DNA of 64,000 bases from a virus (lineage: Duplodnaviria > Caudoviricetes), in IMG/VR virus record IMGVR_UViG_3300038443_001692, positions 20,889 to 84,888 of that record; one strand, given 5' to 3'. Below are positions 10,032 through 33,240 of the stretch, in pieces. Within the stretch, counting starts at the first letter, position 1. Each line of letters begins with the position of its first letter. Under the pieces are notes generated by a model. That model was not told the origin of the DNA. It saw nothing but the letters and a program-made list of their open reading frames with translations, and did not search any database. Both the position numbers and the translations under genes were made by a program.

Positions 10032-10079
10032 TTGCTTCATGGAAGCCCCCGTTAGATAATGGCAATCTAACGGGGGCTT
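10032..10079 (+). promoter_or_regulatory. Promoter TTGCTT-N17-GATAAT inside a 15-bp perfect hairpin covering the tape-measure RBS
   Basis: AAGCCCCCGTTAGAT (10043-10057) / ATCTAACGGGGGCTT (10065-10079); ATG at 10085. Confidence 0.6.
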
Positions 10080-28752: not shown

Positions 28753-30945
28753 TTAAACAGTGATGATGCGGTCAGCGACGGCGTCGACCAGCGGGTTGTG
28801 GCTGATCATGATGATCTGGCCGAAGTCCAGTTTCGACAAGAGGCCCAGCATGCGCGTCTCGCGCGCGTCGGAACACGCAGCGCCTGGCTCGTCCAGGTGG
28901 AGCATATTCGCGCCGGGAAGAAAGGTGCGTGTCAGCGTGATGCGCATGGCCAGGCCCAGCATGTCCTCGGCCGAGCCGGACAGGCCCGAGACCGGGAAGC
29001 CGTTGCATTTGAACATGCCGTCGGCGCGCGTGATCGTCGACGGCGTGTCGCGGATCTCGCTCAGGTGCTTACTCACGCCACCCAGCACGATGTTCCACAG
29101 CTTGTTCGTGATGACCGGCCGCGCCGCGCGCACCTTCTTGATCAGGAGGTTGTAGCGCTGCATGTCGGCCAGCTCGGCCTGCGCGGCTTCCAGCTGGGTC
29201 TTCGTCTGTTCCAACTGGCGCGCAGCTTGCGCGGCAAGGGCTTCCTTCGTCGCAAGGTCGCCCTGCAGGTGCTGCAGGGTGGTCTGCTGCAGCCGCAGCG
29301 CCTGTTCAGCGCTGAGAATGTCCGCACTGAGTCGCTGAGCCCGGTCCAGCGTCTCCAGCGCGTCCTTCAGCTGCAGGCTGTTGCGCTCGACGATGTCGGC
29401 ACCGCGGCGCGCCTTCAGGCGGTCGCGCTGGGCCTTCTTCTCGGTGCGCATAGCGGCGTCCGCCGTCGCGGCGCGCGCCTCGCGCTCCAGCTTCGCCAGC
29501 TCGCTGGCGACGGCTGGCCGTACGTCCGAGATGGCCGGGCCGGTCCACGTCCAGCGGCCCGGGACGACGCTGCGGTCGACCGCGATGAAGTCCGCGGCGC
29601 GCGCATACAGCTGCTCGACCTTGGCGTTGGCGGCGACGACATCCTGCAGATCCTTGAGGTACTGGGTCTGCTGGTCGAGCAGCAACTGCTCGGCCGCCAG
29701 CACCTTCGCCTTCAGTTCGATCTTGCGGGCGAGGTCGGCGAGGGCAGCCTTCGTGCGGTCGCGCTCTTCCGTGATCTGACGTTGCAGATCGCTGTTCGCG
29801 CGCACCACCTCCGGCACATCGGTCAGGTCCTTCTGGCACAGCGCGCAGGTCGTCTCCCGAATCAGCCGGCCCTCCAGCTGAGCTATCAGCACGTCGGAAC
29901 GCCGACGCTCGTCGGCCTCCTCACGGCGCAGCGCCTGCAGGGCCTGGTCGGCCTCCTTGCGGCCCGCCTCCGCGGCGGCGATGTTGAGCTGCGTGCGCCG
30001 GATGTCGGCCTCGAGCGCGGCCAGATCCTCGTCCCACAGCTCCTCGACGTTCGCACGCACCAGCTCGGCGTGCAGCGCGGCCGCGCGGCTGTAGAGCTTC
30101 TCTTCTTCGACGTCGGCGCGCGCCGCCGCAAGTTCACGCTCCGACGGTCCCAGCACGGCCGGCTGCGCCAACGCACGGTCGATCTCGTCGATCTCGAACG
30201 TGGACGTCTCGATCATGCGGTCCAGTTGCACCTTGCGCTGCTCGATCTGCTTCGCCTGCTCTACGTCCAGTTCGGCGCGCGAGGCGCGCAAGGTCGTCAG
30301 CTGCAGTTCGGCGCCCGCCACGACAACCTGAGCCTTGGCGACCTCAACGCGCAGCGGCGCAAGGTCTTCAGGCGGTGTGTCGACGATCTGCGCCTGCAGC
30401 GTCGCGATGCGGCCCTCGACGCCGGCCGTGTTGCCGGTCTGCCGCCGCGCAGCGATGGCGTCGGCCACGCGGTCGATCAGGTCGAAGTTGGCCAGATCCT
30501 CGATCATCTTGCCGGCCGCTGTCGGGCCTGCCTTGAGCGATTCGGCCAGCGACTTCTGGCTGGCGAACATCAGCCTGCCGGCCATGTCAGCCGACGTGCC
30601 GAACAGATCCTCGAAGAATTTCGTCACATCGCGCTGGCCAGTGACCAGCACCTTGCCGCCGGCACTGACCTCGGCGCCGGACTTGCCGCGATAGCCGCGG
30701 TACGTCACGCCCAGGTGCTCGATCTCGCACTCGACGCGCAGCTTGCTGACCGGGTGGTGATAGGTCACGACGTCTTCCAGCGACTCGCGCAGCGCGCCGA
30801 CGCCGAAGCAGAAATAGGTGAACGACTCAAAAATTGTAGTTTTGCCAACTTCGTTCTCCCCGCGGATCGCATTCAACCCTGTGCTGAAGTCGAACTCCCT
30901 GTCGAGGTGTTGCCTGAAAAATTGCAGCCGGAGCTTACGCAGCAT
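28753..30945 (-). CDS. sbcC: SbcC/Rad50-like SMC ATPase
   Basis: Walker A GENEVGKT, coiled coil with a CALC zinc hook, LSGS signature, LDEP Walker B; start at ATG 30945. Confidence 0.9.
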   Translation of the reverse strand: MLRKLRLQFFRQHLDREFDFSTGLNAIRGENEVGKTTIFESFTYFCFGVGALRESLEDVVTYHHPVSKLRVECEIEHLGVTYRGYRGKSGAEVSAGGKVLVTGQRDVTKFFEDLFGTSADMAGRLMFASQKSLAESLKAGPTAAGKMIEDLANFDLIDRVADAIAARRQTGNTAGVEGRIATLQAQIVDTPPEDLAPLRVEVAKAQVVVAGAELQLTTLRASRAELDVEQAKQIEQRKVQLDRMIETSTFEIDEIDRALAQPAVLGPSERELAAARADVEEEKLYSRAAALHAELVRANVEELWDEDLAALEADIRRTQLNIAAAEAGRKEADQALQALRREEADERRRSDVLIAQLEGRLIRETTCALCQKDLTDVPEVVRANSDLQRQITEERDRTKAALADLARKIELKAKVLAAEQLLLDQQTQYLKDLQDVVAANAKVEQLYARAADFIAVDRSVVPGRWTWTGPAISDVRPAVASELAKLEREARAATADAAMRTEKKAQRDRLKARRGADIVERNSLQLKDALETLDRAQRLSADILSAEQALRLQQTTLQHLQGDLATKEALAAQAARQLEQTKTQLEAAQAELADMQRYNLLIKKVRAARPVITNKLWNIVLGGVSKHLSEIRDTPSTITRADGMFKCNGFPVSGLSGSAEDMLGLAMRITLTRTFLPGANMLHLDEPGAACSDARETRMLGLLSKLDFGQIIMISHNPLVDAVADRIITV

Positions 30946-31966
30946 TTTCTTCTCCCATGATTTTGTCAACCTCGGCCGCGTCGTCGGGCCCAAGGTATTC
31001 GCGCAGCGCTTCCATCACGTTGAACGTGGTGACGTCCTCATGCGACAGCTGCAGCGCCTCGCCGTCGACGACGCCTTCGATCTTCACCGCGTTGGTGATG
31101 ACCAGCGCCGCGGCCTCGCGCCGGAAGCGGCCCAGCGCCGATACGACCTTGTCGGCTTCGGCGGCTGTGGCCGTGCCGGTGACGCGGATGAAGCGCCCGA
31201 TGTCTTTGAGATCGCGCCAGTCCTGCTCAGAGAACGTGTCCTCGGCATCCCAGGTCTGGTGGAACTTCAGGCCGTTGGGCGCCAACTCAAGGCGGTATTT
31301 CTGAGCCGGCCCGAGGCAGTCGCTGATGCTGGAGCTGATCTGGTTGCCGACGATCACCACCTTGCCGCCAAGCTCTGTGCGTGCCTGGTGCTCGTGGCCA
31401 AAGATGATGTACTCGACCGGCAGTTGCTCGGCCACCTCCTTCGACAGGTTCAGACTGTGATCCATCTCGACCGCAAACTGGTTGTCGTAGTTCATGTGAA
31501 CGAACAGTGCCCGGCACGGCGGCACCTTGGCGAGCTCAAGGTTTGCCAAATCCTGGTTGGGTACGTGCGGCAGAACGTAGGTGTCGTGCTGATCAAGATA
31601 GGTGCCTTCCGTAATATGCGCTACACGCTCCGGATACAGGCCGCACAGCAGCTGCGCGAAAAACTGGAAAGACGACAGGCGCGTGCTGTTGCGATCGACG
31701 TCATGGTTCCCGTTTGCGAGGAACAAATCGCCGACGCCGCGCTCGATCCACGCGCTGAACATGCGCACAGCTTCCAGCAGGTCCGCACGCGGGATGTCCG
31801 GGCCGTCGAACAGGTCGCCGTTGATCAGCAGATCGCCGTTGATCTGCTCGAGCATTTCGCGCGTGCCGTCGAGCAGGTACTGCCGCAGCTGGTACGCTGT
31901 AGCGGGGGTGGTGCCTGCACTTCGGACGGCGCCGAGATGTAGGTCATTAAGGACGTGAAGGGTCAT
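30935..31966 (-). CDS. sbcD: SbcD/Mre11-like nuclease
   Basis: NDLH, NGDLFD, GNHD and GHEH metallophosphoesterase motifs; adjacent to the SbcC-like gene. Confidence 0.85.
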   Translation of the reverse strand: MTLHVLNDLHLGAVRSAGTTPATAYQLRQYLLDGTREMLEQINGDLLINGDLFDGPDIPRADLLEAVRMFSAWIERGVGDLFLANGNHDVDRNSTRLSSFQFFAQLLCGLYPERVAHITEGTYLDQHDTYVLPHVPNQDLANLELAKVPPCRALFVHMNYDNQFAVEMDHSLNLSKEVAEQLPVEYIIFGHEHQARTELGGKVVIVGNQISSSISDCLGPAQKYRLELAPNGLKFHQTWDAEDTFSEQDWRDLKDIGRFIRVTGTATAAEADKVVSALGRFRREAAALVITNAVKIEGVVDGEALQLSHEDVTTFNVMEALREYLGPDDAAEVDKIMGEENAA

Positions 31967-32465
31967 AGTTATTATTCGGGAAGTTGAGACGAGCGAACTC
32001 GCCATGTAGTTGGATTGCCGCTGCATCATATGCTCGCGCTGCGGCCTCTTCGTCACTGTGGTAGCCGAGATGGTAGTTCTTTCGATTGGCCATAATCTTT
32101 GCGTGCCAGGCACTGCACACCTTGCTCCAGTACACACCCTTGAATCGAGAAGCGCCGACCCGGGAAGTGCTATTTTGGTGGTTCTGAAGGTCGGTCACGA
32201 CTCGCAATTCGCTGCGACGGTTGTCCAGGGTGTCACCAAGCCTGTGGTCCACCTCTTGCTCCGGCGCCGCCTGCATGATCAGACGATGCATCTTCACCTG
32301 CGTGGTCTGGATGCCCAGATGCCCGAACAGCAGCCTGAACTTTTTGCCTTTCGTGCTGGTGACAGCATAGCCGTTACACCAGCACCACTTCAGCTGCGTC
32401 AGCCATTCGTAGTCTTCATCATCCACCAGCGCGACGAATCCCTTCGTGAGGGGAATCTCCTTCAC
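31947..32465 (-). CDS. HNH homing endonuclease with C-terminal AP2 domain
   Basis: KMHRLIM...VDH..GDTLDNRRSELR (HNH); SRFKGVYW...W.AKI...YHLGY...AARAYDAAA...GEFARLNFP (AP2); GTG start after GGAGG. Confidence 0.9.
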   Translation of the reverse strand: MKEIPLTKGFVALVDDEDYEWLTQLKWCWCNGYAVTSTKGKKFRLLFGHLGIQTTQVKMHRLIMQAAPEQEVDHRLGDTLDNRRSELRVVTDLQNHQNSTSRVGASRFKGVYWSKVCSAWHAKIMANRKNYHLGYHSDEEAAARAYDAAAIQLHGEFARLNFPNNNYDPSRP

Positions 32466-32473
32466 AGTGCCTC

Positions 32474-32585
32474 CAAACAAAAGCCCTCCTGACCGTGCTC
32501 TCGACCCGAGGGTCGAGTTGGCGGACGTCGAGTAGACGCAGCACGGTCAGGAGGGCTTACTCAGGTTCGCCGCCAAGCGAACCTG
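32474..32585 (-). ncRNA. Candidate ~110-nt structured RNA (hairpin plus three-way junction, predicted pseudoknot, U tail)
   Basis: 19-bp perfect inverted repeat 32481-32499/32540-32558 enclosing two hairpins; 9-bp hairpin 32562-32585 whose loop is complementary to the junction; upstream promoter candidate. Confidence 0.6.
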
Positions 32586-32586
32586 C

Positions 32587-32616
32587 AGACTACAGCAGGA
32601 AATTACCTGCCGTCAA
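32587..32616 (-). promoter_or_regulatory. Promoter TTGACG-N18-TAGTCT upstream of the structured RNA
   Basis: The -35 overlaps the stop codon of the upstream nuclease gene; the spacer carries the palindrome GCAGG-TAATTT-CCTGC. Confidence 0.55.
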
Positions 32617-33065
32617 GGAAACAACAGCGCCATCACATCCTCGACCTTGGGGTAGGCTGGGAACATCGAGACGTCCCAGGATGCTGCTCGCTCGTAGAAG
32701 TGCGAAGCCGGCACCACCCGCCACTCGCGCACACCGCCACGGCCCTCGGTCAGGTGGCAGATGACGACCCAGCCAGGCGAGCCGGCCAGCGCCCACTTGC
32801 GCATGCGGGCCACCTTGTCGGCCGCGAAGTTCGCCGCCGGCAGCCGCCGGCTGGAGACGGTCGTGATCTTGACCTCCTTCACCTCGACCTTAAAGTTCGT
32901 GCCGCGGTGCGTCACCTCGAAGTCGGACGGCGCCGGCTGGGCCGAGCCCGCCCTGGCATCCGGGTACCGGAGAAACGCCAGCTGCGCATCAGCCTCGCTA
33001 CGTCGGGCAAGCCAGTCACGGACCTGCTTCTCGGCCCACTTGCCACGTTGTCCTACTGTTGCCAT
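32613..33065 (-). CDS. PD-(D/E)XK nuclease, probable Holliday junction resolvase
   Basis: GKWAE...PSDF...VEVKE motif; start at ATG 33065. Confidence 0.7.
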   Translation of the reverse strand: MATVGQRGKWAEKQVRDWLARRSEADAQLAFLRYPDARAGSAQPAPSDFEVTHRGTNFKVEVKEVKITTVSSRRLPAANFAADKVARMRKWALAGSPGWVVICHLTEGRGGVREWRVVPASHFYERAASWDVSMFPAYPKVEDVMALLFP

Positions 33066-33066
33066 G

Positions 33067-33240
33067 TCAGTCTCCTTCCCCGTCGAGCAGCTGGCACGCA
33101 TCCTGCAAGCTGTCCTCGATTGTCTCGAGGGTGATTCGCAGTTTGCTGCCCGGCTCGGCAGCCTCGATGAGCGGCTTGACCTTCTGCAGCGCGCGCTCGA
33201 TTTTTGTGACCGCTGCCTCGATCTTTCTGACGGCGCTCAT
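33067..33240 (-). CDS. Hypothetical 57-aa coiled-coil protein
   Basis: Start overlaps the thyA stop; this is the C-terminal part of track ORF 33067..33801. Confidence 0.6.
   Translation of the reverse strand: MSAVRKIEAAVTKIERALQKVKPLIEAAEPGSKLRITLETIEDSLQDACQLLDGEGD

Follow-up and report, generated by a model that had tools for sequence, protein, structure and literature searches.

The minus strand of positions 32586 to 32475 in a 64,000-nucleotide (nt) stretch of phage DNA (here called the window; it is part of IMG/VR virus record IMGVR_UViG_3300038443_001692, which is 84,888 bp long and has direct terminal repeats) carries one member of a large family of phage RNAs which, as the comparisons reported here show, lies outside Rfam 15. 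The family is that of a folded RNA with a length of approximately 105 nt, in which four helices (P1 to P4) and two long-range pairings, the pseudoknots PK1 and PK2, all covary. The RNA, which in the window stands ahead of a gene encoding an HNH-type homing endonuclease, probably sets the expression level of replication or nuclease genes. All coordinates below are those of the window; the element and its immediate surroundings are laid out, from promoter to start codon, as follows.

32611 to 32616, minus strand: −35-like box, overlapping the stop codon (32615-32613) of an upstream open reading frame (ORF) of 162 amino acids (aa)
32593 to 32610, minus strand: promoter spacer of 18 nt, containing a 5-bp inverted repeat
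32587 to 32592, minus strand: −10-like box, with three of six consensus matches in the window copy and ending 5 nt before P1
32562 to 32585, minus strand: P1 hairpin, in which the core pairs of the family join 32581-32577 to 32570-32566
32576 to 32571, minus strand: 6-nt loop of P1, which is the 5' strand of PK1
32558 to 32562, minus strand: 5' strand of PK2, made up of the linker (GAGU) and the first base of P2
32540 to 32558, minus strand: 5' arm of P2, 19 nt, pairing with 32499-32481
32525 to 32539, minus strand: P3 hairpin, the loop of which (32534-32530) is the 3' strand of PK2
32518 to 32524, minus strand: junction J3/4, 7 nt, the last six bases of which (32523-32518) are the 3' strand of PK1 and the exact complement of the P1 loop
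32500 to 32517, minus strand: P4 hairpin, variable in sequence and length across the family
32481 to 32499, minus strand: 3' arm of P2, forming with the U-rich tract an end that resembles an intrinsic terminator
32475 to 32480, minus strand: U-rich tract, directly after P2
32463 to 32474, minus strand: Shine-Dalgarno sequence GGAGG (32474-32470) and GTG start codon (32465-32463) of the HNH gene

An initial annotation of the window, made from its letters alone, had described the promoter boxes, P1, a 19-bp stem, the inner hairpins, the junction, the run of U's and the GGAGG, and all of these were read at the minus-strand positions at which it had placed them. P2, the closing helix, is a perfect helix of 19 bp (independently recovered as an inverted repeat, I5, with 100% complementarity) that encloses P3 and P4 at a three-way junction. 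The fold of the window copy is far above chance: the minimum free energy of a 151-nt stretch was −89.6 kcal/mol, against −54.5 ± 4.1 kcal/mol for 200 shuffled versions (z = −8.66), none of which was as stable.

The strongest evidence for a functional RNA comes from covariation, which was counted in a model-guided alignment (A5) of 67 distinct sequences. Overall, 93.7% of cells were paired, versus 73.8% in shuffled alignments, and the covariation score was 0.515, versus 0.135 for shuffles (not one of 500 reached the observed score) and at most 0.075 when pairing partners were slid by 1 to 3 columns. Each helix contributes to this result. Double changes were found in four of the five pairs of P1 (96.4% of cells paired), in 13 of the 19 pairs of P2 (95.5%), in four of the five pairs of P3 (100%) and in all seven pairs of P4, a hairpin that occurs in 50 distinct versions among the 67 copies. 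The pair that closes the base of P3 is G-U in 66 of 67 copies. P2 itself has a length of 19 or 20 bp, and its two innermost and seven outermost pairs are near-invariant; the tenth pair, unpaired in 42 of the 67 copies and paired in the window phage, parts a variable inner half from a conserved outer half.

Both long-range pairings were supported in the same alignment. The initial annotation had predicted PK1, between the P1 loop and the junction (UUGGCG/CGCCAA in the window copy), and had proposed a homologue search and a covariation analysis as the way to check it; these bear the prediction out, with 6 bp, 99.8% of cells paired, double (compensatory) changes at four of six positions, and eight loop/junction versions that are all complementary. 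The loop hexamer is identical in 45 of the 67 copies, and the variants stay complementary. Since PK1 stands outside the covariance model, this pairing was not fitted to the model. PK2, which, like the large size of the family, was absent from the initial annotation, joins the linker 5' of P2 to the loop of P3; the two are complementary in 67 of 67 copies, over 4 to 7 bp and in approximately 25 complementary versions, with a mean of 5.6 bp observed versus 3.8 bp when linkers were combined with loops of other types. Moreover, the identity of PK2 shifts among copies with an identical P2: two such groups, with 13 and 9 members, hold four to five versions each.

The homologues that made this analysis possible surfaced only after the contigs of close homologues of the HNH protein were examined, direct DNA searches having failed: exact scans of IMG/VR for both arms of the window copy found none, a 16-mer scan gave only four matches (all due to chance), an arm-gap-arm pattern found none in metagenomes, nhmmer and blastn searches with the element found nothing in the first 58 loci, and BLAST of the region and of four family representatives gave no match in 50,697 cultured-phage records. 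Among the relatives retrieved by protein search, the element was present directly upstream of the HNH gene in four lineages, at HNH identities of 84% (loci L061 to L064), 61% (L065), 59% (L070) and 54% (L071), and in each of these the HNH gene precedes sbcD. Three other HNH-sbcD loci (the contig carrying protein P0003, L072, and L073/L074) were without the element. Already these first homologous copies held compensatory changes in every helix and three versions of the pairing between P1 loop and junction. A pattern derived from invariant motifs then yielded 15 metagenome and 9 IMG/VR loci, mostly of low G+C content, in which the next gene was not HNH, and covariance model R1, built from 16 distinct copies, led to a divergent lineage (L032, L033 and L035) in which the element lies ahead of another HNH-AP2 gene. 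With a relaxed pattern that fixed only the two ends of P2, at least 119 stretches were found; R1 confirmed 52 of 76 new loci from this pattern at 60 to 111 bits (among the matches listed).

In total, pattern scans and the covariance model added 70 further copies to that of the window, bringing the family to 67 distinct sequences. They sit in uncultured phage contigs with a GC content of 47 to 63% and in a few Burkholderiales prophages. Two Paraburkholderia genomes hold prophage copies (the copy at L102 lies in a prophage of Paraburkholderia phenoliruptrix LMG 22037, a bacterium that can be cultivated), and in a sample of Burkholderiales a match was found in 2 of 151 genomes, one of them being one of the two Paraburkholderia carriers. 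The element was found exactly once in each of the four complete phage genomes searched, namely, that of the window (once in 84,888 bp) and three of approximately 56 to 57 kb. A second covariance-model match in the genome of the window, just outside the window (G000:C1:20679-20735, plus strand), was weak (18.7 bits, E of about 0.004) and is probably noise; opposite-strand model matches of 20 to 36 bits arise because P2 is near-palindromic. At one further locus, a tRNA gene (L165:3868-3939, minus strand) lies approximately 110 nt upstream of the motif copy.

The initial annotation had recognized no known family, and this view was upheld: Rfam 15 gave no match at the gathering threshold, to pistol or any other family, for the window motif and 12 further motif loci. 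Permissive scans (E of ≤10) returned only generic long-hairpin models, such as those of microRNA precursors, far below threshold, and the int-alpA RNA motif was absent among the matches at E of ≤10 for the window copy and L088. A scan for tRNAs and transfer-messenger RNAs found none. The HEARO model did not match either, and the protein encoded downstream is a 172-aa protein with HNH_3 and AP2 domains, not an IscB-type RuvC-HNH protein. No description of the RNA was found in the literature; it may be among the 8,495 unnamed IMG/VR candidates of Fremin et al. 2023 (PMC10690425).

A promoter in front and a terminator-like end behind, both proposed for the window copy by the initial annotation, were seen across the whole family. 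In 51 of 64 copies, a −10-like hexamer of the sigma-70 type (at least four of six consensus matches, including A2 and T6) has its end 5 or 6 nt upstream of the first pair of P1, every other offset being represented by at most eight copies; an extended TG is present in 22 copies, and a −35 box with at least four of six matches is present in 35. Because the −10 box stands at a fixed offset, the RNA is expected to begin at P1, which would place the start of transcription at about 32582-32578 in the window copy. Within the promoter spacer (32593-32610), the inverted repeat of the window copy comprises 5 bp with a 6-nt gap, different 4-bp repeats occupy the same place in L061 and L065, and such repeats may act at the DNA level, as operators to which a regulatory protein binds. 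The −10 region is replaced in L095 and L152 by an inverted repeat of 7 bp.

At the other end, at least five U's occur within 8 nt after P2 in 63 of the 67 copies. P2 and its sequel thus have the makeup of an intrinsic terminator, a G+C-rich stem followed by a U-rich tract, and the outer pairs of P2 are both conserved and G+C rich. In the window copy, a simple promoter and terminator scanner called neither signal; its rules ask for at least four of six matches and a hairpin loop of 3 to 8 nt, and the P2 terminator was not called because its "loop" is a branched 40-nt domain. In the lineage of L033, L101 and L102, the core is kept and the U-tract is missing; the 3' strand of outer P2 can instead pair with bases just ahead of the start codon, which looks like a different expression platform on the same core (one lineage, three sequences). 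Elsewhere in the window, a perfect 15-bp hairpin with a 7-nt loop (10043-10079, plus strand), which shares its opening bases with P2 of the leader, just precedes the start of a 2406-aa ORF (probably the tape measure gene) and is likely a terminator.

In 70 of 71 aligned copies, a co-oriented ORF starts 4 to 23 nt after P2, the exception being L163, where the motif lies at the contig end. The first downstream genes (n = 66) are diverse. Pfam HNH_3 was found in 17 (8 of these also with NUMOD4 and 7 with AP2), giving, together with a few seen by PHROGs only, approximately 20 of 66 HNH-type first genes in all; ParB-like genes make up about 10, DUF1376/primosomal genes 7 to 9, replication initiators 5, and SNF2-helicase/methylase genes 2, and the remainder include an antirepressor and small proteins of no known family. 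In the loci inspected, genes two and three encode either a helicase and a primase-like protein or SbcD and SbcC. This spectrum points to the head of a replication or recombination gene block as the native position of the element. HNH-type homing endonucleases of several families stand behind approximately 30% of copies, and approximately 70% adjoin no HNH gene; HNH genes have often come in later between leader and first gene, or carry the leader along, as in the window phage, and the link of the RNA to HNH is secondary. Selfish endonuclease genes with their own promoter and a structured 5' region are also found in T-even phages, where simple hairpins in front of the seg and mob genes and of I-TevI sequester the ribosome site and limit expression; the RNA described here differs in being a conserved double-pseudoknot family that mostly precedes nonendonuclease genes.

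In a number of loci (L128, L141, L125, L121, L137, L135, L147, L105, L172, L104, L154, L160 and others), the bases from the U-tract to the ATG are near-identical and the proteins that follow are unrelated. Promoter, leader and ribosome site would seem to form one mosaic block, with the start codon as its precise point of recombination. A small protein family of 67 to 79 aa without a family match provides the first gene in at least eight contigs (L141, L154, L156, L159, L169, L147, L105 and L172).

In the window phage, the genes downstream of the element agree with those named in the initial annotation (HNH, sbcD and sbcC), encoding an HNH_3+AP2 endonuclease, an SbcD-like protein and an SbcC-like protein. 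The first two lie as follows.

31947 to 32465, minus strand: HNH_3+AP2 homing-endonuclease gene, 172 aa; all HNH homologues align from its GTG start
30935 to 31966, minus strand: SbcD-like nuclease gene, which begins at 31966 and shares 20 nt with the end of the HNH gene

Around the element, the gene order on the minus strand is DNA polymerase A, ligase, thymidylate synthase, the 162-aa ORF, the element, HNH_3+AP2, SbcD-like and SbcC-like. The 172-aa HNH protein and its 84% relative are without the second, C-terminal AP2 domain of the 231- to 237-aa homologues, and since its last codons reach into the old ribosome-site region of sbcD, the protein looks truncated. The 162-aa ORF (32613-33101, minus strand) has no Pfam or PHROG match; its identity is 76 to 83% in four related phages and 42% in a fifth.

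The four viral contigs that share the 162-aa ORF at 76 to 83% identity also have sbcD, and what lies between these two genes differs. In L003 and L004, the approximately 60 to 70 nt between them hold the same −35 box (also present in the RNA-bearing L061 and L065), a −10-like box, a small hairpin and the sbcD ribosome site. In L005 and L006, a different gene of 220 to 228 aa, belonging to PHROG HNH-endonuclease families (PHROG-374-type), takes this place, and no RNA is present. The covariance model found no motif remnant in relatives L003 to L007. The junction of ORF and sbcD therefore exists in three states (small hairpin only, RNA with HNH-AP2, and another HNH gene without RNA), which marks the site as a hot spot for homing endonucleases. 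The RNA and the HNH gene make up one insertion of approximately 630 bp that is absent from close relatives, and leader and homing-endonuclease gene were probably acquired together, as a cassette, ahead of sbcD.

Three other identities for the element were tried and rejected. A group I intron or its remnant does not fit a locus with approximately 145 nt of noncoding DNA upstream of the HNH gene, none downstream of it, and an intact sbcD. A small ORF within the element is not conserved and was rejected because the helices covary. As for a type III toxin-antitoxin system (ToxIN-like), the element is single and nonrepeated, and the downstream genes belong to many unrelated families.

As to how the RNA works, we favor, with moderate confidence, a pseudoknot-controlled attenuator: the RNA would be the 5' leader of the downstream operon, and P2 with the U-tract would be its intrinsic terminator. 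Central to this reading is geometry. PK1 and PK2 each join the outer to the inner end of the P2 rod (19 bp, approximately 53 Å) and so, we infer, are incompatible with a fully zipped P2 in one molecule; the 5' strand of PK2 is contiguous with the outer end of P2, and its partner is the loop of a 5- to 6-bp hairpin at the inner end. During transcription, P1, P3, PK2, PK1 and P4 would form first, ahead of the synthesis of the 3' arm of P2. For the conserved outer half of P2 to zip up against the U-tract, the pseudoknots would have to be broken, and the outcome would be termination and a short RNA of approximately 105 nt; where the pseudoknot form holds, the outer part of P2 would stay open, and polymerase would continue into HNH-sbcD-sbcC. 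The pseudoknot form could be stabilized by RNA polymerase itself, by a protein of the phage or of its host, by a small ligand, or by a second molecule of the RNA. The common mismatch in the middle of P2 would mark the border between its two halves, and the lineage that lacks a U-tract would have, just ahead of the start codon, another partner for the 3' strand of outer P2. By crude duplex energies, the two states are close across the family, at −12.9 kcal/mol for PK1 plus PK2 versus −13.5 kcal/mol for outer P2 (mean difference, 0.6 ± 2.3 kcal/mol).

With attenuators and transcriptional riboswitches, the element shares a promoter-proximal structured leader and a hairpin and U-tract just before the ribosome site of the first gene; going by the one lineage without a U-tract, its conserved core may also occur with at least two different 3' platforms, and a structure that abuts the terminator could oppose it without sharing bases with it. 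Such a "tug-of-war" architecture, in which terminator-abutting structures suppress termination without sequence overlap, has been shown experimentally (bioRxiv 10.64898/2026.06.17.733018). Unlike those systems, the element has no obvious conserved pocket and no Rfam riboswitch match, and its terminator helix is the domain's own closing helix, fixed at 19 to 20 bp.

Several observations weigh against the attenuator. Five copies have no recognizable −10 box, and the start, the 3' end at the U-tract and the read-through are all predicted from sequence. In the window copy, outer P2 (−16.2 kcal/mol) is more stable than PK1 plus PK2 (−11.3 kcal/mol) by the same crude estimate, so that, taken by itself, this copy would for the most part cause termination. 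Conserved nucleotides are nearly all paired, which would be atypical of a pocket that binds a metabolite and argues weakly against a ligand. A constant P2 length of 19 to 20 bp is not needed by a terminator and would be expected of a structural ruler. Lastly, some motif bases were set by the search patterns, which accounts for part of their conservation; no such constraint applied to the covarying positions. In the window copy, a weak −10 box and a perfect P2 suggest low output and strong termination, which would suit a potentially toxic endonuclease.

A second, more tentative possibility is that the short terminated RNA acts in trans, with PK1 and PK2 formed between molecules, either in a closed, antiparallel and symmetric dimer or between the short form and a leader that is nascent or part of a read-through transcript. 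The replication genes would then be expressed according to the concentration of the RNA itself, making it a phage counterpart of plasmid copy-control and incompatibility RNAs, with PK2 as a specificity label. An antiparallel dimer, or the short RNA paired to a nascent leader, would make all four contacts simultaneously; the dimer would fit contacts from outer to inner end on a rigid helix of constant length, as a monomer with P2 formed does not, and nearly all conserved bases are paired; the turnover of PK2 among copies with an identical P2 is what a specificity determinant would show, and a strong promoter and a terminator, at one copy per genome, are also consistent with a product that acts in trans. 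Covariation, however, is blind to whether a pairing lies within or between molecules, and the tight, invariant linkage to the downstream start codon favors at least a role in cis. We rank the attenuator above action in trans on the ground that the element is in every case joined directly to the ribosome site of the gene that follows; the two are not mutually exclusive.

There are precedents for this idea. The leaders that yield the phage P4 CI RNA and the P1/P7 C4 RNA each produce a short terminated or processed RNA alongside a read-through mRNA, with the short species acting on the longer. Likewise, the short terminated form of Gifsy-1 IsrK acts in trans on its own read-through form (PMC4825925). 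The element has no sequence or model similarity to these RNAs (the C4 family was unmatched), and its action in trans is hypothetical. A resemblance is also found in the rep leaders of IncI-alpha, IncB and IncL/M plasmids. In ColIb-P9, the antisense-target loop of the rep leader, which has the same hexamer motif as the P1 loop, pairs with a distant complement to form an activating pseudoknot before the replication-initiator gene repZ (PMC4705826). Like the element, these leaders thus place, before a replication gene, a hairpin with this loop hexamer, the G/C core of which pairs with a distant complement in a regulatory pseudoknot. In the plasmids, however, the partner is found beside the ribosome site of rep, and control involves translation of a leader peptide and competition by an antisense RNA, whereas in the phage RNA the partner lies inside the three-way junction, in J3/4, approximately 65 nt before the ribosome site, and a second pseudoknot and a terminator are present. 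Neither the antisense promoter nor the leader peptide of the plasmid systems is evident here: we saw no antisense gene and no leader ORF (helices covary where such an ORF would run) in an analysis that included no dedicated scan for antisense promoters or terminators, and the CopA-like Rfam model reached only 15 bits, in one copy (L088), against a gathering score of 60.

A more elaborate version, which we regard as doubtful, is a self-recognizing, "addressable" regulator. Terminated copies would dimerize, with P2 as a fixed-length ruler, or bind the nascent leader; read-through would be set by the copy number of the phage genome, and the PK2 groups would block cross-regulation between coinfecting phages.

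It is unlikely that the element is passive, i.e., a stable 5' structure against 5'-end-dependent decay, or a constitutive terminator or insulator that keeps expression of toxic nuclease and replication genes low without any switching. The RNA would start at P1 or a few bases from it, its compact, fully paired fold recalls the nuclease-resistant xrRNAs of flaviviruses, and relatives that lack the motif carry a simple hairpin in its place, behind the same promoter box. Such a hairpin would, however, suffice for these tasks, and a specific three-dimensional or intermolecular function is implied by the retention of both pseudoknots over dozens of compensatory substitutions, by the constant length of P2 and by the near-invariant junction.

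Still less probable is a role at the DNA level (as a homing target, a recombination site at module boundaries or part of a replication origin), or a variant in which the RNA is dedicated to the HNH protein as its guide or partner. Genes of at least three unrelated HNH-type families directly follow the motif, which would fit use as a homing site; in many contigs, the ATG is the exact point at which the promoter-to-start-codon block meets one or another first gene; and the element adjoins replication-initiator genes. Strand-specific G-U pairs (one of them near-invariant), a U-tract on one strand and covariation of pseudoknots, on the other hand, fit RNA rather than duplex DNA. The RNA as a partner of the HNH protein, one of the options raised by the initial annotation, lost its ground once most copies (approximately 70%) turned out to precede unrelated genes and several related HNH genes, among them those of the three HNH-sbcD loci mentioned above, to be without the motif; moreover, the HNH protein has its own AP2 DNA-binding domain.

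Least probable of all, in our estimation, is a new class of self-cleaving ribozyme, pistol-like with an extra hairpin, that processes the operon mRNA before the first gene: as in pistol, the 6-nt loop of the P1 hairpin forms a 6-bp pseudoknot with a strand inside the region enclosed by P2, and a further hairpin follows, and small ribozymes are common in phage DNA, with the GIR1 lariat-capping ribozyme lying directly upstream of a homing-endonuclease gene. The element, however, has an additional hairpin (P3), a second pseudoknot and a 19-bp P2 in place of the few pairs of pistol, and none of the Rfam ribozyme models gives a match even at E of ≤10. In 66 of 67 copies, P4 runs directly into the 3' arm of P2, leaving no unpaired linker at the site of the pistol cleavage dinucleotide, and very few conserved unpaired nucleotides are available for an active site.

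In summary, the element represents a new RNA fold within a known general kind of phage leader and terminator RNAs. Uncatalogued families with such covariation (four helices and two pseudoknots over 67 distinct sequences, to which the databases would add many more) are rare and have repeatedly proved to be riboswitches, ribozymes or polymerase-binding elements. If the RNA is a switch, it would be a natural case of topological rather than sequence competition, in which pseudoknots and the enclosing terminator helix oppose each other sterically; a dimer would be a small, tractable addition to the newly recognized RNA-only assemblies; and should the addressable regulator prove true, phages would have, in a new fold, their own equivalent of the incompatibility RNAs of plasmids. 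For homing-endonuclease genes of several families, the promoter-leader unit is a ready-made one behind which they settle or with which they travel. For the phages themselves, diverse and uncultured and of a proteobacterial type, the single conserved position of the RNA at the start of replication and recombination genes suggests that it probably controls a key step of infection.

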